Shown here: positions 800-34,100 of the stretch, one piece after another
Layout: each line of letters begins with the position of its first letter
Position numbering within the stretch: the stretch's first letter is position 1
NCBI GenBank assembly: GCA_048213135.1
Contig: PS015606.1
Coordinates: forward strand, 2,307 to 37,382
DNA length: 35,076 nt
Reading direction: 5' to 3'
From: Reclinomonas americana ATCC 50394
Lineage: Eukaryota
Program-made: the position numbers and the translations under genes
The notes under the pieces: generated by a model
What the model saw: the letters and a program-made list of their open reading frames with translations, nothing else
Told to the model about the DNA's origin: nothing
Database searches by the model: none

Positions 800-3700
800 A
801 TGAGTGGTGCCGCGGCGCATGAGAACAGCGATGACAGCAGCGACGGTGGTGGAGGAGACTCTTCGGGCGCGCCTCCTTCATTCGCCACTGCGGCAGCGTC
901 TGCCCGTGGAGGCCAAGGTGCGTTCATTTTCTCTTTGCAGTTCATTCTTCTCACTTACTGTACTTGTCTGCGCGATCGTGCAGCAGGCTCCACTCTTCTT
1001 GCCCCCAGCACTCCACTGTCGCACTCTGCCGTGATGCCCGAGTTCACCAGTGTGGTGAGTGGTGACTGCTGCACTGGGTGTCTCTGTGTGTCGTGGCGCC
1101 CGCCTTTTCGCGCCACCAGTGCGCAAAAGTTGTCGGTTGAGAAACTTATTTTTGGGCTGCGACTGCTGCACCTCTCCTCTCCGCCCATGTTGCTGCATAG
1201 GAGGTGGAATACATCGAACCCCGTTCACCTGCCGACATCAAGGCTGCCAGCGGTGGTGCCTCCACCGTGCATCGCACCGCTGTGCCAATTGATGAGCTCG
1301 GTCGTGGAGCCGGTCCGCTTCGCTCTCGCTCCCGCAGCGGCAGTCTGAGTTCGGGCACCTCGACCGGCAACAGCTCGCCGCTGCTGCAGGCTCTCAACCC
1401 GTTTGGAGCCGGCTACGCCACGGCGTCTGCGCCCAACGTATTCGCCGAGCTGCGGCAGGCGATTTCACTGGAACTGCGAGAGTACGACCCCGGTGTCGTG
1501 GCTCGGCAGACCTCAGTGCGCTTGACACCGGAGGAGCGCCTCAGTGTGGCTCGCTGCGCTGGCATTGTTGCGTTGTGTGTCTGCTTGTAACCACAGAGCA
1601 GTGTACTGATACTGCTGCTGCATGCTGCAGCAAGAGCACCTGCTGTCGGTGTTGGCCGTGGCCGAGAAATACGGCACGCGCATTTCTCGTGATCGGGCTG
1701 ACATTCAGGTGCGCAGCGTTCGCGCTTCTTCTTCTCCTTCGCAATACTCGTAGTATTCTGATGGCGCATGCAGGGCTTGACGTCGGCTGAGGCCGCCAAT
1801 CGCCTCGCCGCCAACGGTCCGAATCTGCTTACACCGCCCAAGCGAATCCACCCACTGTTGCGCCTTCTCCGCCGCGCTGTGCTTACATGACAATAATAGC
1901 AAGAATCCTTCTTCACTATCTGCTGCGCACGCAGGGTGTCGTTCCTCAAGTGCTGCACCGATTTGTTCAACCTGCTGCTGCTCGGTGCCGCCGTCATCAG
2001 CTTCCTGTTGATCATCACAGATCCAGGCCTGTCGGACAACGTTTCGCCTCTCACCTGTGATCTGCAAGTTCTCGTTGCACTGAACTTGCGAATTATTACT
2101 GCTGCAGTACATTCTCGGTGGCCTGCTGGTGTTTGTGGTGCTCTTCAATGCCACCATCGACTTTGTGCAACGCCGCAAATCGGAGCGCATCCTCGCTGGC
2201 TTTGCCAACATGCTACCGCCCGAGGCGACCGTAGTTCGCAACGGCGAACAGCAGCGTGTGCCTGCGGCGGGACTCGTCACTGGTGATGTGGTCATGGTGC
2301 GCCCGGGCGACAAGGTTCCGGCGGACATGCGCGTGATTGCCACTCGCGGTCTGAAAGTTCGCCGTCTGTCTTCCTCTTCTTTTTCCGTAGGACTTCGTTG
2401 TTGCGCTAACCCACACGGTGCGTGGAACAGGTAGATCACTCGTCGCTCACGGGTGAAGCTGAGCTGCAGACCCGCACGATTGTGACCATGACCGAGGTCA
2501 ATCCACTGGAGGCGAAGAACATTCTGTTCTACGGCACCAATGTGGTGATGGGAGAGGGTGAAGGTGAGAGTCATCGTCCATCGTGTACATGCTCTCCTTC
2601 ACTGTTGTAGACTGATCACTTGCTGCGCAGGCATCGTGATTCGCACTGGTGACAATACCGTACTCGGCAACATCAACAAGACAGTGTCGTCGGAGAAAGT
2701 GCGCTCGTCGCCAATGACTAGGGTACGCAGCGCAGCAGAGTACATGCACATCTCATACATCATCGTAACATGTATCTGTACCGGTGCAGGAAATCCACTC
2801 CCTGGTAATCAAGATCGGCATCATTGCTGGCATTGTCGCTGTTGTCTTTTTCATCATCGGCATCTTGCTCAGTGAGTAGTGCTTTGAATCCAACAGTTGT
2901 TGCACTGCACTGATTCAGCTGCATTGCAGAGTATTCGATTTCGGTGAACTTCCTCTTCTGTGTCGGCATCATTGTGGCATTGTTGCGTCGAGTCTCTATT
3001 CTGCAGCAGTGTGTGGCCATCCTTCTTCTTCATGGCTTATTGTTGTGCTTTCATGCAGCCTGCCGCAGGGACTGCCCTCCACTGTAATCGTTCAGTCTTT
3101 GTGTGCCACATGTCCCTTCACCACTGCCACCACCACTGTCACCACTGATTACCGCCATCGCAGATGTTGCTGACCATTGCCGCCGCCAACATGGCCAAGA
3201 AGAATGTGTTGGTGAAGAGCCTGCATGCTGTCGACACCCTCGGTGAGATCAATCAGTAGAGTGTTGCAGACTAATCACTGCTGATATGTGTGCATCCTCT
3301 CCACCACACAGGTGCCGTGACACTGCTGGCCTCCGACAAGACAGGTAAATGCGTGTGAAGAGTGGTAATGCGTCTCAGCGGCATGCTCATCCACTGCTGG
3401 CAGGCACACTGACGCAGAATCGCATGACTGTTGTCAATGCGTGGATCGACAACACAATGTACCGCGTTGTCCCTCCTGGACTGGAGGCGCCGCCTGGCGC
3501 AGTCCACATCTTCAGTCGCGAGTCGCCGAGCTCCGTGACGTTGGTGGAGGCCGCTCTGCTTTGCAATCGGTGAGTGCCGACGACCATCGATGGCGTGTCA
3601 GAAAAATGCTGACTGTTGTTGTAATTTCATGGCGGCAGTGCTCGTTGGGCACCAGTGGCGGACAGTGACGTGTCTGCTGTGGGTGGTATTCGCGAGCGTG

Positions 3701-6435
3701 CCATCCTCGGTGATGCAACAGACACGGGTCTCTTCCGCTTTGCCATCAACAACATGGAGTCGGAGGCCGAGGAACTGGAGGTGCTGCTCTGCATTCAGTG
3801 ATCGCATTGGTGACACAGTCGGTTTCATCGCTGACTCTCTGTTGTGCAGATACAACGTCGGTGCAAGCGTATCTTCGAGGTGCCATTCAGCTCGGAGACT
3901 AAGACGCACCTCATCATTGTGGATCGCGTTGACGACGGACGCCTGTTGATTATCAAGGTCGGTGCTCATTAGCAGTCCAGCAGCAATCAGTGCTGCCGCT
4001 ATCCTAACACTCATGTACGCATGCATGCAGGGAGCTCCCGAGCGTGTTCTTCGACGCTGCTCTCGCGCTCGTTTCAACGGTGGAGCAGAAGTTGACTTGG
4101 ACGATGCAGTGGCGGAGAATTTTGATCGTGCCTATCGCAACATGGCGAACCAGGGCCAGCGTGTTCTGGCGTTTGCCATGTTGCAGCTGTCGGGCGAGAT
4201 GGCGTCGGCAGACTGTCAGTTCACTCTTGACCCGCCGAACTACCCCGAGGTGAGTGGTCACTGCTATTCCATCAGAGGAGACTTGAGAATGATGAGTCTG
4301 ACTGAAAACATTGGTGTGTTCCACAGGATTCCTACGTGTTCCTTGGCCTTATCGGACTGGAAGTGAGTTACCTGGTTATCAAGGCACTTGCGCACTCGAT
4401 CTCTCACACGACTGCACAGGATCCACCCAAGCCAGGCGTTGCGGCCGCAGTGGAGACTGTTGCGTTGTCAAACAAACACAATGCATCAGTCATCGTCCAA
4501 CCTCAGCGCTCATTTAGTTTCCCACGCGTAGTGCCGTCGTGCCGGCATCCGCGTCATGATGGTGACTGGTGACCATCCGCTCACGGCGGAGGCCATTGGT
4601 CGCCAGGTCGGCATCATTCGCGGTTTGAAGCGAGAGGATGTGGCACGCACCCGCAACGTACCGGAGGAAGAAGTCCCCGAAGATGGCTACGACGCCGTGG
4701 TCATTCACGGCGACAAGATCGACACGCTCACCGACCACACCTGGCACAGTATCCTCAGCAAGTCGGAGGTCATCTTTGCCCGGTAAGTGTGAACAAACAC
4801 GAACATAATTGTTTCCAGTTTTTTCTCACACCTCCTTGTGTGCAGAACGTCGCCGGCGCACAAGCTGGAGATTGTCAAGCGTGCGCAGGAGTGGGGCCAT
4901 GTGGTTGGCGTCACTGGCGATGGTGTGAACGACTCACCAGCACTGAAAAAGGCCGACCTCGGCATCTCCATGGGCATCTCCGGCAGCGACGTGTCGAAGG
5001 AGGCCGCCTCCATGATCCTCATGGACGATAACTTTGCCACGGTGACCTTTGGCATTGCGGAAGGTAACGGAGCTGCAGATCGCGTACACATACATGTTTG
5101 CATGCATGCACCGGTACCGACACAAGCGTACACACGCAGGTCGCCTCATTTTCGAGAACCTGAAAAAGTCGATCAACTACACGCTGACCCACATCATCCC
5201 CGAGCTCATCGCCTTCCTCCTCTTCATCGCGTTTGCTCTTCCGCTTCCACTGTCGTCCTTGCTGGTGCTGTTCATCGATCTCGGCTCCGAATTGTGCCCA
5301 GGTCTGATCGTGAAGCATGCATCATGTTTGCAGTCAATTGTCATGTGTTCGCTTACCGTTGACACTCGCGTGTGCAGCTCTGTCGTTTGCGTTTGAGCCG
5401 CCGGAGGGCGAGCTGATGATCAAGTGCGTGGTGCTTGGATATTACTGTCTGTGTGGCTGATGTCTTGTATCATTCCTCATTCAAATACACCACCACCAGG
5501 CTGCCCCGCCGTCGAGTGGTTCCGCCGCCGGCGCCAGCGAGAGTGATCGAGCCTGGACGCTCGTTTGACGTCGAAGGTGGCCATCCCTCGGGAGGCTCTC
5601 CTGCCCTGCGTGCTGCAGGTGGTGGCGTGCAGCCGGCGCCCCCACCGCTCGTGGTGTTGTCGCGCATGGCCAGCTATCAGGCGCCACCCACGTTGCCAAA
5701 AATCGATCCGGTCGACATGCGATCCAGCGACGAGCGGCTGGTGGACACCAAGCTGCTGATCAACGCGTACTTGCAGATGGGCTTGTTTGAGACGCTCGGT
5801 TGTCTGGTGGTGTACTTTGTCGTGTTCTGGATTCACGGCATCAAGTCGGTCAAGGCGCTGTTCTTCACCGCCCAAGACTACTTTGCGTCCACCACGACAC
5901 TTGACTTTGTGTTTGAGGATCGCTCTTACGTTGCGCCGCCTTGCTGTTGCTTATCATGCGAACTGTATCATGCATGATCAGTCTCGATTCCACTCACCGC
6001 CAGTGATGTTAACAGTCTCCCGACGAGCAGCGCTGGATTCTGGCCTCGGCACAGTCGGCATACTACTTGACCCTCATCATGATGCAGTGGGCCAACATGT
6101 TTCTCTGCAAGGCGCGCTACGGCACCATCTCGCGTTCGGCATTCAAGTGAGCACACTTCCCACAAGACTGTTAACAAGCGCGTTTCCTCATTTCCCTTCA
6201 CTCGCACAGGAACCGCATGACGTACATCGGCATTGTCGTGTCCATTATTGTGGGCGTTATCATCGTGTACATGCCAGGCATCCAGCTGGTGGTCAAGTCG
6301 CAAATCGTATTCCCGCCGGTGCTCATCGGCTGCCTTCCGGTCATGGCAGTCATGATTCTGTACGATCAAGTCCGCAAGTGGGTCGTCGTTCGCACGGGCA
6401 TTCGCGGGTGTGCTGCCGAGTACTGGAGCTGGTGA
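800..6435 (+). CDS. P-type ATPase, Na+/K+ (P2C)-like alpha subunit, about 26 GT-AG introns
   Basis: Spliced exons give [42 protein letters not shown] (TGE), [16 protein letters not shown] (phosphorylation site, split by an intron at ~3344), [60 protein letters not shown] and IDLGSE. Stop at 6433-6435 after EYWSW. The ATG at 800 is inferred. Confidence 0.95.
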
Positions 6436-8511: not shown

Positions 8512-11229
8512 ATGGAGCCACGGCGACGACCATTGGACACCGCGCCCGATCCTGATGTGGACGACGATGCCACCGCAGAGGAAGCCGCGTGCATGCGAGT
8601 GCCTAGCGTTCGCGGCTCGTGGGACTTGATTGGCGGAACTCCCCATCCGACGCCCACCGAGGAGGAGGATGCGGATTCAGAAGACGACGAGGCGCATGGG
8701 AGCTCCTCTCTGCGCGCTTCTCTCTCCGCCCCCGTGTACCGCTCCTCCCCTCCTGCGTGGTCGCCGTCCGCCTCCACCGCCACCGCAGTGGCGGCCGCCT
8801 CAGAGGCCGGCTTGGAGCTGCTGCCACCGCCACAAGTGCCCGGTGTGGTGCTGGAGGCGTACCAGGAGCAGAAGGGCCCGACGCACTACAACATGGCGAC
8901 GTCGAGTCGCGAGCGCGCAGCGGCGCAGATCAATGGCGTGCAGGAGTATGTTGTGTTGCCGCACCACACGCCAGGTGAGTGTGTGCGTGTGTGTGAGATT
9001 GTTCGGGCACTTTTTTTCTGGCAGCGACTTGCATTAACGAGTGCGCGTGCTTGTGTAGCGTGGCCGCGCATCGACGAGTTGCTAAGCAGAACCATCACGG
9101 ATGAGGCTGGCCTGCGTGTGCGTGCTGTGTGCTGCGTGTTTCTTGTCCGCCGGGTTCCATTGGTCAATATCTCTCTGTGTGTGTTGTGGCAGGCGTTTTA
9201 CCGTGAGCTGGATCCATCGTTGGCCTATGTGGGCGAGACGCTTGCCGAGTTTGTGAGCACGCAGATGACGGAGGAGGTTAGTGGCGTGTGTGTGCGTGTG
9301 TGTGTGTGTTCGGTGTCGTGTGTGAGCGACTGTGCATGACCACTCTTCCTGTCGTCGGCTTCTGCCAGGAACGTGAAACCTTCTATCATGGTACACTGAA
9401 GAGCATGATGGATTACGCGCGAGGCGGTCCGCTTCTCCTCCCGGCACACTTGCCGGTGCTGAGCATTGGGCGTGGTGCGATTGGCTGTTCCGTTGCAATG
9501 CTTCTTCCGCCCCCTCGCTCACTCGATGTGCCTGGGCGACGCAGATGTGGCCGTGACCATCTCGCAGCATCAGGCCGCCTGTCTGGTGGCGCAAATGGTG
9601 TTGTGTATCGCCAAGTTCGGGGACGTGCATCTGACAACATCGACTCGATATCCGAATTCTGGCATGCCAAGCCGCACGTTTGAGCGTCTCTTTGGTGGTG
9701 CGTGGTGCATGTGACACTCCGATCGGGAGCAAGAGAAAGAGACCGCGAGTTTAGTTCGCTCACCGTGCTTTGTGTACATGTGTGGCAGACGAGCTTCGAG
9801 GGTCGCGCGCCGGAAAGCTGCGTTGCCTGTTCAACTACTTTCTCCGCATCGTGGATCACGGTTGCGTTTGTTTGTTCTCTCTCTCTCTCTCTCACATACG
9901 CCGACAATGCCCACTAAGAACTCGCCCTGTTGTCCGCCACTTCTCAGTGTCCACTGGCAATCTCACATTCCACCGTCACGTGCTGCGTCCGGACGACGTT
10001 GTTGACTGGACTGCGTGTGAGACGCCAATGTTGCCAATGTGTGCCGTTTCTGATAGTATCGCGATCGAGGACTGCGAGCCTCCATGTCTGATGTGCGACT
10101 TTGCGAACCGCTACATTGGCGGTGGCGTGACTGGCGGGGTGCGTAAGAATGAGTGCTCTCACCCCACTTTTTGCGTTAAAGTAACTGTGGCGATTGCAGG
10201 GTTCCGTACAAGAGGAGATCACGTTTGTCATCAAGCCGGAGCTGCTTGTCGCGCTGTTGCTTGCGCCCACAATGCAGGAGAACGAGACGATCACAATGGT
10301 GTGCTTATCATGATTGTCTCAGCACGCGTGCGCATGTCTGAGAGAGTGCTGCTCACTCGCGCATATGACAGTACGGCGCCGAGCGCTACTCAAAATACCG
10401 CGGCTACGCGGCATCGTTTGAGTTTGCCGGCGATTTTGTGGACCCGGATGTGGGGACGTGAGTTATTCTTTCCGAAAAATGCATCATGTCTTCTTGTGTA
10501 TTTGCGGGTTCTGAGCGATCGATACGCACAGCGATACGTGCGGTCGTCGTCGCAGCTGGGTGGTGGCCATGGACGCATCGATGAATGCCCGAGGCAGTAC
10601 GGCACAGTTCCGCTACAAGAACATTCTTCGCGATCTCAACAAGGCCTACTGTGCCTTCCGTGTCGACCGATTGTTGGACACTGACGATCGGTTGACAGCC
10701 ATTGCCACTGGCAACTGGGGTACAGGCGTGTTTGGTGGCGACAAGGATCTCCGTTGTTTGCAGCAGTGGATGGCGGCGTCTCTCGCAGCTCGTCACGTTG
10801 CGTGCTTGTGTGTGAGGTTCATGTTTCGGTCGATTGGCAAGCAACTGATGTGCATGTGTGCAGTTGCGGTTCTGCACGTTTGGTGATCGCAACCTGGCAC
10901 TGCGTGTCGCCGAACTCGACCACGTGCTGCGCACCACCGAGGTGCACGTCAGCGTCAGTTGCGTGGCCATCTTGCTCTCTCTCGGTGCTTCGAATCTTCT
11001 CTCTCTCTCACACACACGCGCAGTGGAGGTTATCCGGTATCTGCACGACTACAAGGACTACCTCAAGCACTTCACCAAGGAGGCGGACAGACGGTCTGTG
11101 AAGCTGACCGAGGAGATGATGGAGGAGCACTACGGGAAGCACTTTTGCCCGGCAGTCGAGTACGTACGTCGGCGCATTACTGGACAGGCACTGTACACTG
11201 GCAACCCCAGTCGCTGCAGCACCATGTGA
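8512..11229 (+). CDS. PARG: Poly(ADP-ribose) glycohydrolase, canonical macrodomain PARG, about 11 introns
   Basis: Spliced catalytic signature DFANRYIGGGVTGG|GSVQEEITFVIKPE (GGG-x-QEE), plus KLRCLFNYF, GAERYSKYRGYA, VVAMDA, RDLNKAYCAF, ATGNWGTGVFGGD and QWMAAS. Confidence 0.93.
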
Positions 11230-13799: not shown

Positions 13800-13875
13800 A
13801 AACACAGCAGTGAAGCTTTTCGTTTGTCGCGGTCCTGCTGCAACCACAAAAAATTGTCACCATCGAGCGACGACA

Positions 13876-18000: not shown

Positions 18001-18953
18001 TGGTGTGTCCGCATGGTTCGGTGCGTCATGTGTGTTCTCCTCGAATGAATGCTCTCCCTGCAGGCACCACCACCACCACTAATGAGTGAAAAGACTGCGT
18101 GTACACAAGCGTGAGCAAGCACGACGCATGCGCAACAGATCGCCGCCGTCGTCGCCCTCCAGCGCCGCTCGCTGCGCCTCCTCCTCGCTCTCCCTCTCCA
18201 GTTCGCGAACATTCGCCATGTGCTCCTCTATCTCGGCCATGACTCGCACACCCTGCGCCGTCGTGTCCTCCTCCGCTTGCTCCAGATCGCCCTTCAGCTC
18301 CACATACATGGCACGCAGCGTGCCGGCCCGCTCGGCGGCATTAAAGTTGAGTGCCAGCATGCCCTGCGACGAAGGTGAGCCAACAGAGCAACAGGCGTCA
18401 ATAAGTATAGATGCAGACTTGAGCACCTTCATGTCGTTGACTCGCTTCGCCCAATCTGCGTGGTGATAAGCAGCTTGAGCGAAACGAGAGGAGAAAGAGA
18501 GGGAGACAGTGCGATGAAATGAACGCAACAAGTCGACATGGAGTACCGAGCGCCCTCTCTCCGCCCCTCCTCCTCCGCAAACTCACACGTGACGTCGTCC
18601 TCCATCGATCCCATTATGGTGGCCAGCTCCAACTCCACGCGCTCCCTGCCGATCCAAGTAAGCAGATGTGTGATGAGAAAGGAACCTCCACCAGCTGCAG
18701 TCGCACCTCTCCTCCTTCAGACGCGCATGCTCCATCAAATAGTCACGCTTGTGCCCATCAATGCGCGACTTTTGCTTGTTGCCCTTGACCACCGACTTGA
18801 GCTGGTGCAACTATACAACGAGTGGAAGGATTGAGTCTGAAATAGCTGACAAAAAAAGTGACCTCGCACTCCCACCTTCTCCTCCAGTCGCTGCGAGCCT
18901 TGCTTTGACCGCTCCAGCAGCGCCATGGCCTTGTCCACATCGTGCCCGCCCAT
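15023..18953 (-). CDS. CCDC148: CCDC148-like coiled-coil protein, about 8-9 introns, two N-gaps
   Basis: The C-terminus LDELRAQVAP...PERLLQPT...GYSEVQLLKDPRYKLVTRLGEAGLLHKPYAQQVF...NPRKDMLS resembles the CCDC148 C-terminus as I recall it. The internal segment RFIDRLSLEMPSHNKASIEEMLAWH is also consistent. The start ATG (MGGHDVDK) is inferred. Confidence 0.7.
15318..15458. other. Assembly gap (N)
   Basis: Run of N inside the CCDC148-like gene. Confidence 1.
15816..16287. other. Assembly gap (N)
   Basis: Run of N inside the CCDC148-like gene. Confidence 1.
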
Positions 18954-19344: not shown

Positions 19345-19920
19345 ATGGCCGGCGAGAAGTTGCGTCTCTGTCTGTGATGCTTGTGCGTTGTCCTTGTGTG
19401 CGCCTGTGGCGCTGTGTGTTCGCTCGTGTGCTGTGCGTGACATGTGCGCCGACATGTTTGCCAATGGCGGCCTCACGCTTGTCTCTTGACGCGCTGCAGG
19501 ACTGTGTCGACGCGTGGAGCGGGTGCGGGCGTGTCGCTCAACTCAGCCAAGAAGAACTTCCTGTCGTTCTACTCGGGCGAAGGCGAGGACTCAATGGGCT
19601 TCAAAGTGTTGCGTCTCTCGGCACACACAGCGGACGCTCTCCCTCTCCACACGCATGCACACACACGCACTCTATCCTCCGTTTCCGCACCCACTGCTCT
19701 TGTGTGTCTCGATGAGTGACGAGCGTGTGGACGGGGGCGTGCGCGCCATTTTCCGACGCACATCCCCCACGCGCGTTGTCTCCCGCCAACTCATATTCTC
19801 TCTCTCCCCCTTGTTTCTCCCTTTGTGACTTTTAGGCCGCCGCAATTCGTGCTGATTGGCAGCATCATCTTTGTGGTGATTGTGTTCATCCTGCACATTC
19901 TCGGCAAGTTGGTCGGATAA
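19345..19920 (+). CDS. SEC61B: Sec61 translocon beta subunit; exons 19345-19358, 19500-19607, 19836-19920
   Basis: Spliced product MAGEKTVSTRGAGAGVSLNSAKKNFLSFYSGEGEDSMGFKVPPQFVLIGSIIFVVIVFILHILGKLVG* matches the Sec61beta/Sbh1 pattern (FY..DS.G.KV.P..VL..S..F...V..LHI.GK). The ORF track misses it because of the introns. Confidence 0.9.
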
Positions 19921-20048: not shown

Positions 20049-22928
20049 CTACGCTGGTGTGTGTTGGTGTTGCTCCTCCACTGGTGGCTGTTGTGGTGAC
20101 GGTGATGGTCTAGGTGGTGGTGGTGGTGGTGGTGGTGGTGGCGGCGGCGGCAGCGGTGATGTGGGTGACATCATTGCTGCGGCGTGCAGGTGGGGATCGG
20201 CATCCGCGTCACGCAGGCTCTGCTGGATCAGCACGTCGCCGAGTTGGCGGCGCACGCAGTCGGCGAATGACAGCAGAGCTGTGTGCGCCGTGGCACTGAG
20301 GGTGTAGCCACGCCGTCGCAAGTCGAGATACCCGCGCAGCGCCACGGTGAATTCGCCGTCGTCGCGACTGTTGTCCGTTTGAACCACGGGGACTTGCCAG
20401 CTGGCCGTCGCCGTGGGAGTGTTGACATTCGAGGTGGATGAGGTGAATGGCGTAGGAGGTCGTCGGGCTGGTGGCGATTCCACCGGGAACTCGAGAGCGG
20501 GCGCCAGAGGCGTCTGCGGGCGCATAGGCACAGTGGACACCGCGTCCTCCTCATGGTCTTCACCGTCGTCACCTCCGTCGTCACTCGCCGCCTCCGCCTC
20601 CTCCTCGTCCTCCTCTTCCGCCTCCTCTTCCTCCTCCTCCTCGGGTTGTGGAATGGTGTGGGCACTGGGTGTGGGCGCTTCCACCGGTGGCGGTGGCGGC
20701 CGGGCCGATCGTAGTGCACTCTTCGGAGGTGCACTGACGGGTGTGGGCGTCGACGACGAGGTGTTGCGCTTGTTCTCCTCCTTGACCACCGCCAAGGATA
20801 TCGATGCAGCTGATGATGATGAAGACGACGACGAGGACGAGGATGAGGAGGAGGAGGAGGAAGGAGACTTGGGGGGCGCACTGCGCGACCGCTTCGTCGG
20901 CGGCTCCACCGACTGAGATCTGTTCTCGGCTGGCCTCTTCGGTGGGACCGCTGCTGCCGCGTACACCGGTGCCGGTGGTCGCGCCGTCGTTGCCGCCTGC
21001 CCGACCGGTTTCACTGTTGGCTGCAGTGGTGGACCACCCGGCCGACTCCCTCCTCCTGGAGCAGCTGCTGCTCCTGCTGTTGTTGTTGTCGTGGCGGTGG
21101 TGGTGGTGGCGGCGGCGGTGGTGGCCGTCATGGCGACATCTGGCTTTGCCAGTGATNNNNNNNNNNNNNNNNNNNNNNNNNNNNNNNNNNNNNNNNNNNN
21201 NNNNNNNNNNNNNNNNNNNNNNNNNNNNNNNNNNNNNNNNNNNNNNNNNNNNNNNNNNNNNNNNNNNNNNNNNNNNNNNNNNNNNNNNNNNNNNNNNNNN
21301 NNNNNNNNNNNNNNNNNNNNNNNNNNNNNNNNNNNNNNNNNNNNNNNNNNNNNNNNNNNNNNNNNNCACGGCGGAGACCAGGCGCGCCCCCATCACCCGA
21401 TGGCGCATCGCGGTCGCCGGTGCACAGGAGCACCCGGTCGCACAGCAGCAAGAGCTCGCGGAAACACTACTCGCCACCTCCGCGACCGCCATCACCGAGT
21501 GCCGATGACCGTCCCCGTCGCCGGAGTCCGCAGCGACTGCGGTCAGAGTCAATGTCGTCGGCATCGTCGTCGCGCTCGCCGTCGCCGGCACCTGTGACTC
21601 CGCGCAGTCGCAGGCCCACGACACCCGGACTCGACACGCAGGTGACAAGCACGGCGGTGACTGCAGTGGCGCCGACGCTGCCGCCCGCAGACTCGTACCC
21701 GGCCATTCGAGTGGCGGCCATGATTCGCAGCGGCTTTTTCGGGCCAGGCTCCAGGTTGCGCTTCTCTGTGGTGAGCCATGTGAAGTCGACTTGCTGCTGA
21801 TCGTGCCGGCACAGGATATCCTTCACCTCGTCAAACGGGACCTTGTCGGCCCGTCTCATCTGTGCGTACGACAAGACCAAGCAGACACTCAAGGTGCGGT
21901 GGCGGCAGTTTGAGCTGCCTGCTCTCTACAGCAGGAATGACTGACCATGGTGTCGATATGCAGACGCATTGGTTTCAGAGTGATGAGGGAGTTCGCTTCA
22001 AGGACCCAACAGTTGCGTGCTAGTGTGTCGCTGTGCCTCCCTCTCTCTCCCTCTCTGCTCACTACGGTGCCAGGCGTTCTTGAGGCACGCTGTGCGGCAT
22101 TTGCAAGGTGCGTGTAATTGGAGTGCATGCGTTGATTGTGCGGCATGCTGACTCGTCGAGTGTGCAGGCATCGAAACCAACGGCAACAACGCGTACTCGG
22201 TGCTGGCAGTCCGCACGCACACGAACCGGGAGTTTGCCTCGCTGGTCGAACTTCGCCGCTTCATCTTCTCACAGACNNNNNNNNNNNNNNNNNNNNNNNN
22301 NNNNNNNNNNNNNNNNNNNNNNNNNNNNNNNNNNNNNNNNNNNNNNNNNNNNNNNNNNNNNNNNNNNNNNNNNNNNNNNNNNNNNNNNNNNNNNNNNNNN
22401 NNNNNNNNNNNNNNNNNNNNNNNNNNNNNNNNNNNNNNNNNNNNNNNNNNNNNNNNNNNNNNNNNNNNNNNNNNNNNNNNNNNNNNNNNNNNNNNNNNNN
22501 NNNNNNNNNNNNNNNNNNNNNNNNNNNNNNNNNNNNNNNNNNNNNNNNNNNNNNNNNNNNNNNNNNNCGTACTCGACCGAGGGCGACGGGGAACGCGAGC
22601 GCCGAGTCCGTGACGAGCGATGTGCGTGATGGTGGTGATGAAGGTGATGGGGCAATTCTGGTGGTGCTGGTGGCGGAGGCGGTGGTGGAGGTGGTGGCGG
22701 TGGCCAGTGACTGCGGTGGCGGTGACTGTGGTCTTCGGGGCGGTATGGGTGAACGTCGTAGCGGTGGTCGTACGGGAGGTGGTGACGGAGACTGGGAGCG
22801 GCGGAGGAGTAACCGTGATGCACATAGTGGTGTGGCTGCGGGTGGCCGCTGCTGCTACCGCTGCTGTTGTAGTGTTGTCGCCGCTCGTAGTCCACGTCAG
22901 CAGCGCTAACTCTGCGACGCGCGCTCAT
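20049..22928 (-). CDS. Hypothetical low-complexity protein (RS/His/Pro-rich N-terminus; Ser, acidic and Pro tracts); two N-gaps
   Basis: MSARRRVSAADVDYERRQHY...RSSRTRRSRSPSPS, possible folded segments at ~21700-22130, and a long final ORF 20049-21131. The exon structure is uncertain. Confidence 0.55.
21157..21366. other. Assembly gap (N)
   Basis: Run of N. Confidence 1.
22277..22567. other. Assembly gap (N)
   Basis: Run of N. Confidence 1.
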
Positions 22929-23092: not shown

Positions 23093-26000
23093 TCACTGAA
23101 TCTTGGGACGCAGGATGCCAGTGAATCTGCACAACACAACACACAAATGAGTCGTCGGATCGTCGATCGTCCATGTCGCCGCATGGGGTGCACGCAACTT
23201 GTCCGGCAGCATCTCAAAGTAGCGGTCCATGGCCTCGCGGAAGCGCTTCTTGTACGACCGCGGATTCATGACGGTCGGCGCACCTTTGCCACCGCCAATG
23301 ATACCACTGCTCTTCACAATGTGTTCCAGTTGCTTGTCCCACGTGTACTGGCGCAGGTAGTCTGCACGAAAAGGGCACACATTGAGCTGCGAGCGAGCGC
23401 AGCGAGTGGACGAGCAGGTGGAACATAGCGCGCACCGATAATGCCGACCACCAGCTGCTGTCGCTTCTCATCGATGCCCACCAGCAACGAGTAGTCCATG
23501 ACATTGACTTTGGAGAGGAAGAGGGTGTCGTTGAAGATGGATAGACTCATGAGCGCCTTGCTGGCCTCGTTCATGGCCAGCGGATTATCCTCGTAGATGA
23601 CTGCACGCATCGACTCACGGTGAGCAGATGGAGCGGGAGCGCGCGCACACACATGCTCACGCACACTCCAACATGTTCTCGTCGAGTTGCACGGCGTCGG
23701 ACTTGGTCTGGTAGCGATTGCGCAACGAACCCTTGAGATCGAACGTCTGCACAACAGCAAAAGCACATGAGTTCCACGCTCGTACGCATCCCAACGACAT
23801 TGTACATCACCTGTGCAATCTGCCGATCGTAGAACAAGTTCTCCATCACCACCAGATATTTTTTCACGCTCCGACCGGCTGTCGCGTACTTGACTCTGTA
23901 CAAGCCGAGGACCTTGACCAGCACGGTGGGCAACTGCGCAGCACAGCATATACGAGGTGTGAGTGCGATGTACGTGCGAGCAGACGCAGGGATACAGGCG
24001 GAACTTGGTGGAAGAACGCCTTGGTGAGGTACTCAAAGTACGACAGGCCAAAGTCGAGGAACGACACGAGCTCCACACGCGACACGGACTTGATGACGAA
24101 GCGGTCATCTGCAACCTACGCGTAAGCAAAAGAAGAAAGGAAAAAAGGAACGCAGTCACAGAGAGTGGCATTTGCCGCACCCCATGTTTTCACAAATGTT
24201 GAGCCAGACTTGCCGCCGGTCGGCAGCCATCTTGCGCATCGCAGGAGACTCTCCTCAAAGAGCACGTCACCGCGGCTACAATCCCACCATAGACGACATG
24301 AGGAACGGCGCACGACCGTAGCCAAGGGAATTCACAGCCACAGCGCAACTGAATGTACTTGCGAAGGGCGGCAAACTGCAGCGGGAAATAGACGTGCACG
24401 GAGAAAGCGTCCTTCTTGGTGACGGGGTCCACCACGGCTGTGCGGGAAGCAGCGATTTCAATGATAAGCAGACGCGGAAGGCTACCCTTATTGTCGAACT
24501 ACAGCGACACGCAACAGTGGCTAAACGGTGTCTTGTCCGGGTTCAGCAACAGACTCTCCATGGCTGTGTTAAGACGGTCACGCACACAAAAAGAAGAAAA
24601 CGGGACGAGTACAACGCAACTGACGTGATCCGCGGGGTGTGCCGCGTTCACTGGTTCCACTGTCCTCTCGTAGTCTCGAGAACTGCACGGGGGAGGCGGT
24701 GAGCTGCATGCACGGCGGTGTTTCGCAATCCATATTCTTTCACGAACGTGAGCGTGTGAGCAATAAACGACGACGGCTCCTCGTGGTGCACCGGCACCAA
24801 GCCCAACAATCCCTCCGGCAAGTCCCAGTTGAACGACAGCTCCCTGTGAGACGAAGGAAGTTTGAGCAAGGGCTGATAAAGTGCCACATAGTAGCGACGC
24901 AACTGTGGGAGCGACACACTCGGGAACTTGATCTTTTTCAGCATGTGCGACCGGCGTTTCATGTCTCGTTCGCGCTCGGCGGCCGCTGTGCGTGCGTTCG
25001 AAAGAGAGGACCCGTTGAGTGAGCAATCACAAACGCAGCCGCCGTCAAGTGAACAAGAGAATAACCAACCGAGACGTGCAGCCGCTCCACGAGCCGCACT
25101 GCCCGGCAGCGCTGTCGCTGACGGCACTGCACCAGTGGACACCGATCCACTCTGCATCACAACCACCATCCTCGTCAGCACGCCGATACACGGCAAGCAA
25201 ACACGCTCTCACATGGACGAACCATTCCAGAAACCGCAATCTCCACACCATCCAGCAGCGGCTCCGAAGCCACGTCGGGGAGCACCGGTGGCTGCGTATC
25301 AGAGCAAGCAAAAACATGTCAGCGTCCGCACGCACACACACACTCGTGCAGTGCACACAAACGCACATCCTCACGCGCGCCCTCCTGCAATCACACGAGC
25401 AATCAATGAGAATGGGACATCGCAGAACACGATTCCTTCGTCAACAAACCTCAAAGTCGGCATACGCAGAAATGGTCATGGCGGCAGCACCCTCGGATTC
25501 ATCGGCCAGTCCTTCCCGTTCACCAAACCTGTCACTCTGCAACGATGCCAAGTAGTCCTGCATGGAGATGGCCGACTCGCCACCAATCTCCAGCTTGATT
25601 TGCACGCCAGCCGACAGGGCATTCTCAATCATCGTGGGCGACGTGGACAGGATCACCGGGTCGCCGGCATTCAACGTCAGCTGAACGAACGAGTGGTTCC
25701 AGTGATGAATGTACACGCCCAAAAGTCTGCAACCACACGAGGTCAGCGGAGGCAACGATGCGCACCGCACACAAACAAACACACATAGCTCACCTCAACA
25801 GTCGACCCATCGACATGAGGTCGTTGCCTTGTGAGCGCGCTTGCCGAATGATGGCGAGCATGTCCACGGTGTGCGACGGGATGAGGAGCTTCAGCGCCTC
25901 GAGTGTGTCCTTGCAGTGCTCGTACGGCTCAGACGCACTCATACGCTCCACCATGGCGTACACGCGCGACAAGATCTTCTCGCAGAAGAAGAGAAGTGTC

Positions 26001-27870
26001 AACAAACGTAACACAGACAGGCGAGCTTCGACAAACTGCACACACACACACACACACCTGCTCGGCAATGATGAACAGCGAATTCCACTTCTCCTCACGC
26101 TTGTGATGGTGCGTTCGCATGTTGTAGTCGAGAACTGCCGGTGGCACAATGACGCGGCACAGCGACACCTCCTCGTACTCGAAACGCGCAATCTGCAAGT
26201 ACATACACCGCGAGTGAGAGGTGCGCACATGAAATTACCGTTTCTCACTTCCACAGCACGCAACAATGTTGCCCCTGGCAAAATGGCGTGTCACGTGCCG
26301 ATGCGCCACCTTGTTCTCGGCCCATGTGCGACAGTAGACGGTGGTGTTGTAGAAGAGGTTCTCCAAAAACTTGCCAAACGAATACTGCAGGCTGCGATCG
26401 GAGAGTTTGTTGACTGGCGTCACCTGACGACCCGTGTCGCGGCACGTGCCCCAAGTCACAATGTCGCGACCATCCGTCAGCTTCTTCTGCTCTCACAACA
26501 CACGAAAGTGAGTCGACATCCATCCACAACATGAGGTCGCGTGGCACGAACCGCAGAACGGCGCACTGAGATCGACACTCGACCCGATCCGTGTGCGTAC
26601 GACTTGGTGTGCTGACAAATCTCGTCGAGCGTCTCCTCGTCAAAGCACTTGTGGTTCAAGTAGGTCTCCAACGTCAAGTCGTTCTCCGAGTAATAAGCAA
26701 TCTCAATAACTTCCGGACACTCGTCCAGCTCCAGTCGATCGCGCAACTCGCTGTGGTGCACAAGAAGCAAGGGCAATGAGTATTAAGCACAACGATGCAA
26801 CACAAGCTTAAAAACACACACCTTCCGTCCGACACTGCGCGTTGTCGGTACAAGACGACCAGTTGCTGGTGATGGAACACCGATGGCATGTACACTCGGA
26901 AGCCGGCTGTTGAACGCGGATACAGATCCACATTGTCGTTCGCCGACAAGAACGGCGAGGGCAAGAAGAGACCTTTGGTGGGAATTGGAATGCGAATGTT
27001 TGGCGAAATGCTCATCAAATAGTCCGTCGGCACCTCGCCTGATGCGTGCACACGCACAGAAGCGAAATCAGCGACGCGACACGCACACGTGCTGTGATAA
27101 AGGAGGCAGACACACACTCACCCATTTCGAGTGTGACCTCGCGATCTGTAATGGCCTCAAACGACGGGATTCGCGTGTGTACCGAAGCAGCCGGACTGCG
27201 AGCCGACGACTGCGAACCCTGCCCGTCGTCGTCCTCTGCCGTGTCGCCGCCAAACGCAGTGTCATCGGCGAGCGAGTCATGTGAGCCTTGCCGCACCAAC
27301 TCCGCCGACACCTCCTCCACCGCCTGCGACACCAGCGGCACGACGACCGAGTCGCGACCATCGGCCTTCCCGTCGGCCTCCACATCGTCAAGCTAATGGC
27401 ACGATAGTCATTCCGTGTGAGTCGTAGGGGGGGAGCCGCCAATGCAAAAGTGCACACACCGCATTCGATCCGAACACGAAGAGCGGGACGGCACTGTTCT
27501 CGTAAAAGAGATACTCGGTCTCCAGCGACAGGTTGTAGGCCGCGTAAATGGCAAACTGCATGCAGTGCGGCAGTCAGTCCACATGTGCACGACGAGCAGC
27601 TTGGTGGACGAGACGCAACGCGGAGCAGACGCTTGACAGCACGCAGAGTCTCGTGGTCCGCGCCACGCAGGTTGATGGTGCACCCGAGATCAGATGGGCA
27701 GCCTGCACGCATCAATCGATCAGTGGATGCGATGGCGAGAGAACGCAAAAGGAATATGACAGCCAAGAACGCACCATCAAAGTACAGCAGCGACTTGCGG
27801 CCCCACTCGCCAGATTCGACCTTGAGACGGAATTCACTGCAGGTGCCCAGTTGCGGATTGCGCAAGGCAT

Positions 27871-27904
<34 letters not shown>

Positions 27905-30900
27905 GAGAGAGAGAGGTCAACAAAAGTGATTACACGACGAGTGTCATCGCGAGATCATACCGGCCGACGGCAGGATTTCGCCCTCCGTCAGGCGTGCCAC
28001 TCGCTCCATTGCCAAGCCCTTGGTGTTGAGGATGAGCGTGACACCCGCTTCCAGGAACAAGTCCTGCATGTCGTGATTGTCAGCAATCACTGTTGACTGG
28101 CGCGCACAGATCGCGCCACCTTCACCGCACCTGTGCAATGCGTGACACGGATTTCTCCACAATCACAATGTCGGGCTTGAAGCTCAGAATACGGTTGACG
28201 GTGCGCTTGATGTGCTCGCCCTCCTGCGCAATCACGCGTAAGAATGTGCACAAACGGCAACTCAGACAAGACAGGGTTGTTTGTGACACACACGTACCTG
28301 CTGCAGCAGAATGTCGAATGAGGAGACGCGATCCTCGGTGCGCTCGTATCTGTGTGCATGATTGTGGTGAGACAATAGGCCAACAAGATGCGTGCGGAGT
28401 GGAAACGCACTCCAGCGCCGACTCGAGGAGCAGAATGCGCGGGTTGCGAATGTGGCTCCGCATGCGCTTGTTCGCAATGGTGCGGTCAAGCACCGCACCT
28501 GACACGTACTCGCAGTCCTCGAGGCGCATGTGCGGAATGCAGTGAATCTGCATGTGCGAGCGGGCATTCATTCAGTAATCTGTAATGATGACCACACTAC
28601 CAGGAGAATGTGTGTCACATACCTTGACGTACGCAGTAATGTCCATCTTGTCGCCATCGTCAACGCGCGGAAACACGTGCTGGACGGCCTGGTACGAGAG
28701 CGCAAGGATCACATCTGCGGACGTTCCACGAGTGAGCGACAAACAAATACGAGTGCCACGCGAGAAACATAGCAATAAGCGCACCAATCCACTGCGTGTC
28801 AAGGCCCGCCTCGGCAACAATCTGTGACACCAGACGATGGAAGTGCTGTGACGAGCAGTTCTCGAGAAGTACGCGATGGCGCATGCTGTCTTCCTCCGAC
28901 TCTGTTGAAATGTAGATAATAAGCAAGGCTGGAGGAGACACACACAGAGTGCACGCGCACATAGACACACCTCGCAGCTCCGACAGGAACTGCACGGAAG
29001 TTGACTGGCCCAATACCAGCTGATGCTTTCGCGTGCCAAGGAAGCCGCGCAACCCGGCAGTTGCAGCCGTACCTGCACCATGAATGCGCGAGCAAGTTGG
29101 CGACACGAACAAGCATGAACGAAGTGAGGAATCCACGCACCAGTGGGCGACGACGCAATGAGATGTTCCACATGTCGCGAGGCCGAGGCCACAGAGGACT
29201 CCACATTCACGGTCGCCACCTGCACAACCACCACCATCAGCACAAACGGAGAGCAGGTGGCGAGAAAACAACGCAACAGCTTCGGGAACTGCCGTGAGGT
29301 CTGTTTCAGACTTGCGCTCGGTGCCCCACCTGCATCGCCACAGAAAAAGGTGAGAAACAACATTGGCAGGTGCGCGGCAGCAGGACGATCACGCAACTCA
29401 GCCGAGTTGAACTTGTCCGAGTTGCCTGACTCGACCGTGGGAAGACCGACACGCTGGGGAAGATGAGTTGAGTCACAGCATGAAACACGAGAGTGCGTCT
29501 CGCTGTTAAGCAACACACCTCTTCTTGATCGGAAGCCGGTGGAACTGTGCCGTCGGCATCTGTCGGGGACAGGAGGCGACAACCGTCAGTATCAGGTTGA
29601 GCATTACACAAGCGCGCCAACTCGGGGCACACACAACTCGGCAGCACAATGTCAGAGTCCGGAATCAATGCCAGTGTCTCGTCGCGATCCAGCGTCGTCT
29701 TGTTTCCCGACCCACCGAGGTGACTGATGATGGGCGTCGTTCCGGAGAGATTCCCGCCGTCTTCCGACCCCTGCACGTGCGTGCGCCGCAAGTGGATCTT
29801 GCGGTGGCCGCCGCTGAACTCTTCCTCCTCTGCGCAGCACTGCGAGTAAGCAAGTGGAATTCGCAGAGCCCGTGCAGCTGACTGGACAAACCTCCACCTT
29901 CATCCTGCGTCTCAAAAGAGTCAATCATGCGGCGCCTGATGACGGCGAGTGAGTGAGTGGGAGCACAGGGGGAAACGTGGCAAAGGTATGATGAATACCT
30001 GCTGGCATTGTTTGCCGGTTCCTCCGATAATCTCGCCTCCGAGTGCGCACTGCTGGTCGGTGACGTGACGGTGGTGGCGACAGGTGCGGTCGACGAGTCG
30101 TGCGACATGAGCAGCTGAAAGCAGTACGAACAGACGCGAATGTTGCCCTGGTAGCCGTACGGAATGCCACTGATAAACACATTGCTGCACTTGCCGCAAA
30201 AGATCTGACCGCACACACGGCAGTGGTGCTTGCGCTTGAACACGCTAAACTGCGCGTGACACTCGTAGCAGTTCCGCGCGCTCTCGTCCGGCATCCAATA
30301 CTCCTTCATCTTTTGCTTCGAGCCCAGCGCCTTGAGCCGCTCAATCACCTCCGACATTGGCGTTCGACTGTCGCGTTCCGTCGGCACACGCGACGGCCGC
30401 CTCGTCTGGTCCTCCACCAGCAACGAGCCCTTACTGCCACCAAAAGCACATCAGTGCGCTGTGGGAGACAGGGAGCGCGAGCATGCAAAGATTGACGCAA
30501 CGCATCCAGCGACGACAGTGTTCCACTCCGATGCCGTGTTCTCGCTGTCACGCAAACACATGCATGCCCAACGAGTAAGCACTGTTCTCGCGTCTGTCTG
30601 TCTCTCACTCTCTCTCACACACACACACCTGCATTTGGTGCATCCGGCGACGCTCCTGCCGCCGCCGCTGCCCCTCCTGGCCCGGACGCTGCGGCTGTCG
30701 GCGTCATAGTCGGCGACTGTGCCGACTGCGCAGAGAGCGGAGTCACATTGGAGGTGTGCAGCGGAGCCAGTCTCGCCATCAAAGTCGGAGTCGTGGTGGT
30801 GGTCTCTGTGTCTTCATCACCGCCTCCTCCTCCGCCTCCGCCACCACCAGAGCCGCCTCCAGCACTGCTGATGTCGTCTTTGGAGAAGAAGCTGTGTGCA

Positions 30901-31069
30901 CAATGAGTGAGCGAGTGTGTGTGCGCGAGTGTCAGAGAGAGAGAGACGGAGGATACCCTTTGAGACGAGACAGCAACCCGCCCTTCTTCTGTTGCTTCTG
31001 TTTGCGCTCCTCGCGTGCAATCAGGTCAGAGAAGTCGGTGAGACCGCCGTTATCGCCGGCGTCGGCCAT
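23093..31069 (-). CDS. FAB1: Fab1/PIKfyve phosphatidylinositol-3-phosphate 5-kinase, about 38 introns
   Basis: FYVE domain (WMPDESARNCYEC...RKHHCRVCGQIFC...RVC), CCT/Cpn60-like domain (MDITAYVK|IHCIP...KRMRSHIRNPRILLL), CCR region (SFGKFLE), EEPSSFIA, and PIPK domain (GGKSGSTF, DLKGSLRNR, NDTLFLSKVNVMDYSLLVG, DYLRQYTWDKQLE, PRSYKKRFREAMDRYF). No DEP domain was recognised. Confidence 0.95.
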
Positions 31070-31170: not shown

Positions 31171-34100
31171 ATGAGCGAGCGGCGAAAGAGCAAGGCGGCT
31201 GAGAAGGCGCCGAGCAGTGGCCAGAAGACGAAGAAGAAGTTGAGCAAGCAGCAAGCGATACAACGAGGTGAGAGAAAAGTGGTGCTTGCGCGGCCATGTG
31301 CACATTCACATCACCAACTTTTTTCGTGTGCAGATTTGGAAGCGCCGATCATTCGTGATGAGCGATTTGCGAGGATTCACACGGATCCGAGGTTTGCAGA
31401 GCGACCGGCGAGTCGAGCGCACTTGCAAAAGCTGGTGATTGATCCGCGTTTCCGGGCGGTGTTGGAGGACGAGCGCTTTGTGTCGAAGAGTTGCGTCATC
31501 ACTCTCGTGATTGGGGGGAAAGAGTGGTGGTTGTTGTTGATGATGGTGGTGTGGCTTGGTGTAGCTCGCGTGGACAAGTATGGTCGCGTGGTGGACAACG
31601 ACAAGGCGCGGAAGCGAATGGAAAAGTACTACACGATTGGCGAAGAGGAAGTGGAGAAGAAGGAGGAGGAGGAGGAGGAAGACGAGGAAGAGCAGCAGCA
31701 GCCAGAGGATGAGGACGAGGACGGGGAAGAGTTGGATGCTGATGCGCTGAAGCGGGCACGTTATGAGGGATTCGTGGGCGGCGACAGCGATGACTCGTCG
31801 TCGACGTCGGAGGCTGAGTTGTTTGCCGACGATGTCGACAGCGAAGATGAGGATGAGAGCGATTTGTGGAAGGTTCTGGAGGAGGATATCCCGCACGGTG
31901 ATGAGACCACGCGATTGGCCGTCGTCAACTGCGACTGGGATCAGATCAAGGTACTGTTGGTGTTGGGGGATGACCGCTGTCGCTCGCCTGCTGATCGAGA
32001 CTCGTGGTGGTGCGGTGGTGCGCAGGCCAGCGATCTGTTCATGGTCTTTTACAGTGTGTTGAAGGATCCTTCGTCGCTGCTGTCGGTCACAGTCTACCCT
32101 TCCGAGTTTGGTTTGCAGCGGATGGCCGAGGCGAGTAACCCCCACCTTCACCCTTACCCGGCCTGTCGCCAGTGCCTCCTGCTCACGCTGTTGTGTGCTG
32201 CTGCAACTGCAGGAGACTGTCAAGGGCCCGCTGATCAGCAGCAAGTCGAAGAAGGCACCGAGCACCGTCGTCACACAAGAGTTGCATTGCGGTCTCTGGT
32301 GGTTTTCTGAGTGTCCTCTGCTGCTCACGTCGGTGTGTGGGACAGGGCACTGAACCGAGCGGGTGCCAAGGGCAAAGAGAGCGATGACGACGATGATGCG
32401 AACGACAGCGAAGGCGAGGATCACGTGGAACGAGCACGCAGTGATGACGGAGACAGCGAAGACGATGATGATGATGACGACGAGGAGATGGAGGTGGATG
32501 AGGAGGATGATCGCAGAAAGAGAAGAGGCAGTGGCCGCGGCAACAACAGTGGTTCAGATTTCAACCCGGTGAAGCTGCGCAAGTACGAGTTGGACAAGCT
32601 GAGGTTGGTGTTGCATGGGCATTTGCCAAAGAGTGGGCTTGCTTCTCATGCACACGCCCGTGCTGTTAGGTACTATTTTGCCATTGCCGAGTTCACCACC
32701 GTCTCCGCCGCGCGACAAGTGTACTCCGAGTGTGATGGCTCGGAGCTGGAGAAGACCGGCAACATTCTTGATCTGCGCTACGTGCCAGTCGGCACCACTT
32801 TCAAGCAGCCCGCGCGGTGCGTAGGCTTGCCTGATTGATTCGTGTGTGTGATTGCACCAGCTGCTGACCCCACCCCCCGCTGTCGTTCTAGTGACACGAG
32901 CACATCGCCAGTGACAAACTACAAGCCGCTGGACTTCCACACGGCGGCGTTGCAAGACAGCACTGTTGAGCTGACGTGGGATCGCGACGACCCACTGCGC
33001 AGCACGGTGCTCAGGAAGCGGTTCACGGATGAAGACATGCGGGACATTGATTTCAATGCGTATATCGCCTCGTCGGAATCGTCGGAGGGGGATGATGAAG
33101 AGGACGGCGTGAAGGAGGATGACGACGGTGGCAATGCAGCAGTAGCAGCTTCGAAAAGCCGGGAGCGCAACGAAAAGATGTTGAAGAAAAGGAGAAAGGG
33201 CAAGGATGAGAAGGACAAGGCTGTTGCGTGTGACTGTCGAAAACCGGAGCGTGTTCGCTGCCATGCTTTGTCGACTCAATGTGTGTCGTGCAGGCAAAGA
33301 TGGAGGCGGAGCGCAAGAAGTACCAGGCGCTGCTTGCCAGACTGGCCAACGACGACGCCTACGATGCGTTTGCCGACGGCAATGAGGAGGACTTGAAGCA
33401 GATGGATGGGCAGCATGATACGGAAGATCAGCAGCACGATGAAGAGGAGGAGCCGGCGGACAAGTTTAGCGAGCGTGAGTTCAAGGTGGTGTCCGGCATG
33501 GACGATCTGGAGGAGCGGCTGCTGAAAAAGGCTCAGACCGGCACTCTTGGCAAGACGGAGGATACGCGCACGGTGTGGGAAAAGTACTTGGCTAGACGCT
33601 CTGAGAAACGCAAGGATAAGAAAGAAGAGCGACGTTCTCGAGTGGCTGTGCTGCGGGCTGGCGGGCAGGNNNNNNNNNNNNNNNNNNNNNNNNNNNNNNN
33701 NNNNNNNNNNNNNNNNNNNNNNNNNNNNNNNNNNNNNNNNNNNNNNNNNNNNNNNNNNNNNNNNNNNNNNNNNNNNNNNNNNNNNNNNNNNNNNNNNNNN
33801 NNNNNNNNNNNNNNNNNNNNNNNNNNNNNNNNNNNNNNNNNNNNNNNNNNNNNNNNNNNNNNNNNNNNNNNNNNNNNNNNNNNNNNNNNNNNNNNNNNNN
33901 NNNNNNNNNNNNNNNNNNNNNNNNNNNNNNNNNNNNNNNNNNNNNNNNNNNNNNNNNNNNNTCGACAAGGATGGCGACGATAGCGGCGGCGACAAGGGCG
34001 CTGTTGACTCGGAGGAGGAGGCGTTGCTGCGATCGGTGGCCGACGATCCCTTCTTCAAGGACGAACTCGCCGAACAGGGCTTCACCGTCGCCGCTGACGA

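Follow-up and report, generated by a model that had tools for sequence, protein, structure and literature searches.

The window analysed here, a stretch of 35,076 bases (35 kb) from contig PS015606.1 of Reclinomonas americana ATCC 50394 on which all statements below rest, has a G+C content of about 56% and carries densely interrupted genes, among them those for a P-type ATPase, a WD40 protein, PARG, a PIKfyve-type lipid kinase and ESF1. Genes were placed by Pfam matches on open reading frames (ORFs), and the gene models were cut at five runs of N (15318-15458, 15816-16287, 21157-21366, 22277-22567 and 33670-33961; 1,406 bases in total), which interrupt at least three genes. The subject of this report is the 5' splice sites (donors) of these genes, which fall into two classes: an ordinary one of the form (G/C)AG/GTG(C/A/T)GTG, the slash outside the brackets marking the exon-intron boundary, and a second one of the form N/GTTGCGT. 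The final model holds 111 introns in 22 gene pieces, and GTTGCG is their commonest donor hexamer (25 of 111), followed by GTGCGT with 12. The GTTGCG class is real, comprises roughly a fifth of the introns and is found in at least seven genes; no selection by the splice signal can be detected on the exon base that precedes it.

Introns were defined by two tools. A spliced protein-to-genome aligner, which uses GT, AG, BLOSUM62 and an intron penalty only, was supplied with 16 ATPase, 7 PARG and 14 PIKfyve homologs and yielded 42 homology-verified introns (ATPase 22, PARG 5, PIKfyve 15), 57-90 nucleotides (nt) in length, across whose junctions the homolog alignment was restored. Most of them are near-unanimous in the homolog votes, the weakest being those at 1709 (9/16) and 10797 (4/7), while for those at 3570 and 3781 the donor votes were 13/16 and 16/16 and the acceptor was taken from the gene finder. 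The second tool, a Viterbi gene finder trained around the verified introns, combines a donor matrix over +3 to +8 only with a 3-periodic coding model, matrices for acceptor and branch site, and a prior on intron length; exon position -1 is used by neither aligner nor finder. All 111 modelled introns have GT...AG ends by construction, and the PIKfyve model is a single open frame over 42 exons. On its own, the finder recovered 22-24 of 27 verified introns with exact boundaries (about 85%), so that a misplaced donor or acceptor is probable in several of the 69 introns outside the verified set.

On both strands together the hexamer GTTGCG occurs 52 times against 36.5 expected, a count reached in 1 of 100 shuffles; 25 of these occurrences serve as donors in the final model and 27 do not. 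The donors are spread over 7 of the 11 gene regions. Seven are found among the 42 verified introns, that is, by homolog alignment without the donor matrix, and an eighth site has majority homolog support. Apart from the donor, these are ordinary major-type (U2-type) GT-AG introns: their median length is 72 nt (71 nt in the others), a CTNAY branch motif is present in 21/25 (49/67 of the GTV introns), the branch A lies at a median of 20 nt from the 3' splice site (19 nt in GTV introns), a CAG acceptor is used in 22/25 (60/67 in GTV introns), and base composition is alike in GTTGCG and other introns.

The two classes differ sharply in the exon base that precedes the intron. An earlier note on this DNA, made from the sequence alone, had counted a single G at -1 among 21 GTTGCG donors (T 9, A 7, C 4) and had claimed that ordinary donors mostly follow G. 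With four more donors and one more G the first claim holds, the bases at -1 being T 11, A 8, C 4 and G 2, the two G cases lying at 9861 (verified) and 21755 (predicted only); the second holds as well, since G precedes 9/9 GTA, 3/3 GTC and 36/55 GTG donors. The contingency of -1 base and donor class, which the note had wished to see tested genome-wide, is strong within the window (2/25 against 48/67 non-GTT donors; Fisher p=3e-8). It is also significant in the verified set (1/7 against 24/31, p=0.0035), and persists when the finder is run with its donor matrix zeroed and without the homology bonus (2/23 against 43/77, p=7e-5), a run that gave 116 introns and recovered 34 of the 42 verified ones. 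The direct counterpart of the motif, GTGCG, follows G in 14/21 cases (p=4e-5 against GTTGCG), and GTGCGT in 7/12.

The rarity of G has to be read against the bases that normally precede GTT in exons. A baseline of codon position alone, which is blind to neighbouring bases, would suggest a depletion of G (1/24 against 7.3 expected, p=0.002) and an excess of T (11 against 4.8). In the predicted exons, read on the sense strand, GTT has a G before it in only 29 of 217 cases (13%); GTTG has a G before it in 9 of 87 cases and a T in 41, and the 27 non-donor GTTGCG sites are preceded by G four times. The 25 donor -1 bases fit these neutral contexts (chi-square p=0.30 and 0.34), and an active avoidance of G, considered at first sight of the codon-position figures, was dropped once the neighbouring-base context was applied. 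The phrase "almost never G" therefore describes the absence of the normal G preference on a low baseline, and the earlier suggestion that the exon end is freed from splice-signal constraint appears borne out in this form. The normal preference is itself considerable: ordinary donors show G in 39/56 against 174/503 in their own context (odds ratio 4.3), and the same selection acting on the GTTGCG donors would have given 10/25, where 2 are seen (p=0.0004; p=0.0035 when GTTG supplies the context).

The loss of G-1 is not caused by T at +3 alone, since among the 44 GTT donors those with G at +5 (for instance GTTGGT and GTTTGT) still follow G in 6/9 cases, against 4/35 of those without it (p=0.002). 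These 35 include the 25 identical GTTGCG hexamers; where GTT donors have G at +6 and none at +5 (n=29), G-1 is found twice. Non-GTT donors without +5 G have G-1 in 7/9, as compensation would predict. Over all donors, G-1 accompanies +5 G in 47/67 cases, against 11/44 where +5 G is absent (p=5e-6); a trade-off would give the reverse of this positive association, which speaks for a different reading of the second class.

On the intron side, the GTTGCG signal is the ordinary consensus GTGCGT moved one base downstream. Position +7 is T in 20/25 and C in 5/25, which equals the ordinary +6 moved by one base, and its log-likelihood is -18.8 when the consensus is offset by one base, -41.5 when it is left in place and -29.6 under background, the offset being better than no offset by 22.7 nats. 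Position +3 is T in all 25, and no GTAGCG, GTCGCG or GTGGCG donor occurs among the modelled introns. The ordinary donors (n=64) have A-2 in 32, G-1 in 45, G+3 in 55, G+5 in 56, T+6 in 36 and G+7 in 32. On the exon side, a model in this same register fits the GTTGCG donors worse than background by 19.7 nats (-129.1 against -109.4), with A-2 in only 5/25, while C at -2 is enriched (12 against 5.7 expected after context correction, p about 0.015, n=25). It was also observed that ordinary donors read GTGCGTG and not GTAAGTA (e.g. 10139, 22108 and, on the minus strand, 29140); their preference for G+3 and G+7 may hint at a non-standard U1 5' end.

Three other accounts of the class were considered and rejected. 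Minor (U12-type) introns have a donor consensus of the [AG]TATCCTT kind; no such hexamer is present among the 40 hexamers that cover all 111 donors, and GTTGCG differs from it at +3 to +6. An introner-like or transposon-derived family was sought by all-against-all blastn of the intron bodies, which gave 39 short hits, none of them GTTGCG-specific among the matches listed; the 20 listed are of 13-22 nt and occur in both donor classes. GT or CT dinucleotide runs are found in several introns (27871-27960 on the minus strand, 9861-9947 and 10958-11023 on the plus strand), and it is because of such runs that the short matches arise. Finally, if the boundaries lay one base off on both sides, giving non-GT introns, the TGC (Cys) codon that opens the exon after the intron at 4459 would become GGC (Gly); the residue at this junction is one we take to be the Cys of P-type ATPases.

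Table 1. Genes and GTTGCG introns of the window. Introns marked "predicted" are those of the gene finder model; finder margins are in nats.
Feature	Positions	Strand	Exon end	Support and remarks
Na/K-type P-type ATPase gene	~800-6435	+		Pfam
WD40 gene	near 7-8.5 kb	-		Pfam
PARG gene	near 8.5-11.2 kb	+		Pfam
PIKfyve/Fab1-type lipid kinase gene	~23.1-31.1 kb (model 23093-31069)	-		Pfam
ESF1 gene	from 31.2 kb	+		Pfam
ATPase intron	1567..1630	+	att	predicted, margin 1.2; 3/17 homologs including best-scoring P0278
ATPase intron	1857..1934	+	act	16/16 homologs
ATPase intron	2982..3058	+	att	16/16 homologs
ATPase intron	4459..4531	+	act	16/16 homologs; next exon opens with TGC (Cys) codon
ATPase intron	5930..6015	+	tac	donor in 7/16 homologs, 8/17 including P0278; margin 3.4
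PARG intron	9861..9947	+	acg	6/7 homologs; G at -1
PARG intron	10797..10863	+	cac	4/7 homologs
PARG intron	10958..11023	+	tca	predicted, margin 7.5
Intron of a gene without name	18058..18136	-	tct	predicted, margin 4.9
Intron of the same gene	18456..18529	-	ctt	predicted, margin 7.4
Intron after very short first coding exon	19359..19499	+	gaa	predicted, margin 2.0; 141 nt, long for the window
Intron	19608..19835	+	agt	predicted, margin 4.2; 228 nt, longest of the class
Intron	21755..21814	+	cag	predicted only, margin 7.8; second G at -1; 60 nt
Intron	22012..22073	+	aca	predicted, margin 2.7
PIKfyve intron	23127..23198	-	caa	predicted, margin 8.8
PIKfyve intron	24276..24349	-	tca	7/14 homologs; 9/14 with minimum intron length 52
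PIKfyve intron	24438..24515	-	act	3/14 homologs (4/14 with minimum intron length 52); margin 8.4
PIKfyve intron	24564..24620	-	tca	predicted, margin 7.2
PIKfyve intron	24844..24903	-	aca	predicted, margin 0.9, weak
PIKfyve intron	26193..26264	-	att	13/14 homologs
PIKfyve intron	27556..27619	-	cgc	12/14 homologs; 13/14 with minimum intron length 52
PIKfyve intron	29220..29277	-	gct	predicted, margin 1.5, weak
PIKfyve intron	29330..29397	-	tga	predicted, margin 5.6
PIKfyve intron	30434..30501	-	tgc	predicted, margin 1.9; donor in 3/14 homologs, with other acceptors
ESF1 intron	33223..33293	+	gct	predicted, margin 6.9

Some of the introns in Table 1 have competing readings. The rival to 24438..24515 is a 45-nt intron, below any verified length. 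The intron 21755..21814 is spanned by an ORF (21509-21910, plus strand), the alternative reading being coding sequence; in this part of the window, between two N runs, overlapping genes are predicted on opposite strands, at 21467-21859 (minus) and 21367-22276 (plus), the plus-strand model having four good-looking introns and the opposing minus-strand ORF no Pfam match. At 26487-26578 (minus strand), a GTTCGT donor at 26551, which follows G, has the votes of 10 of the 14 PIKfyve homologs, while the finder, unlike the homologs, picks 26578 with a margin of 0.6; the model keeps the finder's choice, and the GTTGCG counts are unaffected either way. The heptamer GTTGCGT occurs 25 times, five of them without use as a donor: 311, 8419, 17815 and 31490 on the plus strand and 14115 on the minus strand. 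Two of these, at 311 and 8419, are found a short way upstream of where the ATPase and PARG coding sequences begin and could belong to introns of the 5' untranslated region.

The genes themselves are of extreme intron density, with 26 introns modelled in the 3.7-kb ATPase coding sequence and 41 in PIKfyve; many exons of both genes measure just about 50-200 nt, and intron size is tightly controlled. As regards relatives, the top database match of an ATPase exon is a transcriptome protein of Diphylleia rotans (67% identity), followed by zoosporic and other early-diverging fungi (53-63%). A metagenome scan with an ATPase exon gave 80 loci but no close genomic relative, the best being at 58% identity; 16 of them, aligned with 3 homologs, provided 27 introns with 3 GTT and 0 GTTGCG donors, a set too small and too distant to serve as a comparator, in which two loci (L009 and L011) have the same three donors. 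The chaperonin-like exon of PIKfyve found no homolog among proteins of up to 2000 residues. Furthermore, a protein of 105 residues (P0128) is 73% identical to one exon of the PIKfyve kinase domain (23317-24189, minus strand), much closer than any full-length PIKfyve homolog, which indicates that a fairly near relative has been sequenced somewhere.

How the GTTGCG donors are recognised is something we infer purely, and we give an even chance to the proposal that U1 pairs with them in a register shifted by one base. In such a register G+1 would take the place of the exon G-1, opposite C9 of U1, while U+2 would stay unpaired opposite C8 and still be available for the catalytic GU, cleavage remaining before G+1. 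The bases U+3, G+4, G+6 and U+7 would then play the roles of +2, +3, +5 and +6, with U+3 pairing with A7, G+6 with C4 and U+7 with A3, and the exon bases -1 and -2 would come to lie opposite U10 and G11, where C-2 could pair with G11. As one G:C pair would be lost, the other positions would have to be near perfect, which would explain the tight GTTGCGT motif; and with the role of the exon G-1 passed on to G+1, the codon at the exon end would be free to vary. The alignment of N/GTTGCGT with G/GTGCGT, on which the earlier note had built this idea, is supported by T at +7, the constant T at +3, the disappearance of the A-2/G-1 signal, the fit of the -1 bases to neutral context and the enrichment of C-2. 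The further suggestion of the note, that G+1 could take over the U1 pairing of G-1, agrees with the lost need for G-1.

Several observations weigh against a shifted register. The canonical exon profile, when shifted accordingly, fits no better than background (-109.3 against -109.4). The shift predicts A at -1, yet T is commonest there (11/25), matching the neutral context, and A at -3 is in excess (10 against 3.4-4.4 expected after context correction, p=0.0002-0.004) with no partner in the shifted register. The block that follows GTT is GCG in 25 cases and GAG or GTG in none, whereas the ordinary class uses GCG 21, GAG 15 and GTG 13 times; since canonical U1 should pair with GTTGAG better than with GTTGCG, the shift leaves the strict GCG unexplained. 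With a human-type U1 5' end, from which that of the organism may differ, the mean RNAduplex energy of the GTTGCG sites is -1.05 kcal/mol, where ordinary donors reach -6.9, and in the minimum-energy duplexes C9 pairs with G+1 in only 4/25 and C4 with +6 in 11/25. No U1 or other small nuclear RNA (snRNA) gene was detected in the window, Rfam giving 0 hits at gathering scores and, at E up to 1, two weak microRNA-like hits far under the cut-offs and no snRNA. Finally, 69 of the 111 introns are prediction only, in models built without transcripts, and 18 of the 25 GTTGCG donors lie outside the verified 42, two of these 18 with partial homolog support.

This last point bears on one alternative, an artefact of gene models or of small numbers, in which some GTTGCG donors would be false or the contrast would lessen as more introns were verified. 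The accuracy of the finder alone, as given above, and the many margins below 3 nats speak for it, but the contrast is already significant among verified introns, it survives removal of the donor matrix, and position -1 entered neither tool, which makes an artefact highly improbable. Ordinary compensation in an unchanged register, with a strong intron side making G-1 needless and the low neutral frequency of G before GTT adding the rest, would fit a -1 distribution equal to the neutral context, and dependencies between exon and intron positions of donors are known in other eukaryotes. It is nevertheless quite improbable: GTGCG and GTGCGT donors mostly follow G despite carrying the same intron-side block, GTTGCG in the normal register, without a purine at +3, G at +5 or T at +6, would be a very weak site and not a strong one, and the association between +5 G and G-1 is positive, not compensatory. 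A register with a bulged U, in which G+1 would pair with C8, one U of +2/+3 would bulge out and GCGU would pair as +3 to +6, the exon end being dispensable, accounts for the one-base offset on the intron side as well as a shift does, and the +2/+3 bulge is a validated human register, predicted at 68 sites in humans (Tan et al. 2016, Table 3, PMC4856993). The bulge would, however, leave C9 free for G-1 and U10 for A-2, so that the exon signal should persist, but G-1 stands at 2/25, where canonical selection would give 10/25, and A-2 at 5/25. Moreover, a freely bulged base at +3 could be any base and predicts no invariance, while only T is seen, as expected if U+3 pairs with A7 of U1. The shift predicts no need for G-1, a specific U+3 and C-2, all three of which are seen, and it is therefore favoured over the bulge, which we hold to be unlikely.

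A different reader would change the molecule and not the register: GUUGCGU would be matched by a U1 whose 5' end has co-evolved, by a second variant of U1 or by some other factor, with separate molecules for the two donor classes. The very tight motif (25 identical hexamers among the 35 GTT donors without +5 G, with GCG only), the very weak pairing of human-type U1 in any register and an ordinary class with G+3 in 55/64 and G+7 in 32/64, unlike CAG/GTAAGTAT, all fit such a reader. Against it stand the Rfam result, with no snRNA gene in the window to back it, the likeness of the two classes in every other intron feature, and the exact one-base relation to the main consensus, which would have to be a coincidence; taken together these make it rather unlikely. 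Its most explicit form, two parallel 5' splice-site systems in which about a fifth of introns would depend on a dedicated U1 variant or small RNA complementary to GUUGCGU, and the AG/GUGNGU class on ordinary U1, appears distinctly unlikely, though it would explain the near-invariant heptamer, the lack of GAG and GTG, the loss of the exon signal and the poor canonical U1 fit.

Should one non-canonical register serve about a fifth of introns, the organism would lend itself naturally to asking what fixes the cleavage site when U1 binds out of register, what extent of pairing U1 requires, and in what way codons are constrained by splice signals. In practical terms, splice-site models with an obligatory purine at +3 and G at +5 would overlook a large share of the introns of this lineage and mis-annotate its genes.

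Among known systems, the dependencies described between donor positions are of the trade-off kind: where the intron side is weak, G-1 is needed. The present case is alike in that the identity of exon base -1 depends on intron positions, and unlike in that donors without +5 G are also without G-1. Variant U1 snRNAs offer a looser parallel, as several U1 sequences in one cell could read different donors; to our knowledge, no variant U1 serves a large dedicated donor class. A full-text literature search with the motif and splice terms found nothing relevant.

Non-canonical U1 registers are known as exceptions from human minigene work; shifted and bulged ones have been experimentally validated in human cells, where validated non-canonical registers account for 1.5% of sites (Tan et al. 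2016, PMC4856993). Bulge registers, including that at +2/+3, are treated by Roca et al. 2012, as summarised in the same paper (Tan et al. 2016, PMC4856993), which predicts the +2/+3 bulge for 68 of 201,541 human sites. The GTTGCG donors resemble these sites in the extra U after GU and in the displacement of the downstream consensus by one base; they differ in frequency (25/111 here) and in the exon signal, which is lost here, while in the bulge G-1 stays paired with C9. In the shifted-register sites (Roca and Krainer 2009, via Tan et al. 2016, PMC4856993), every pair with U1 is displaced by one base and G+1 lies opposite C9. Here too the introns are of the GU-AG major type and cleavage stays at GU; moreover, the model site of Tan et al. 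(PMC4856993) has C and A before GU, and C-2 is enriched in the present class. On the other hand, the human model site is printed with C at +3, in place of a U+3 that would pair with A7; the human sites are atypical, whereas here one dominant hexamer would carry the register to about one in five introns; and the class described here is known from sequence alone. The type of site is known; new are the scale, with about one intron in five, the dominance of a single motif, and a release from selection that can be measured at the last base of the exon.

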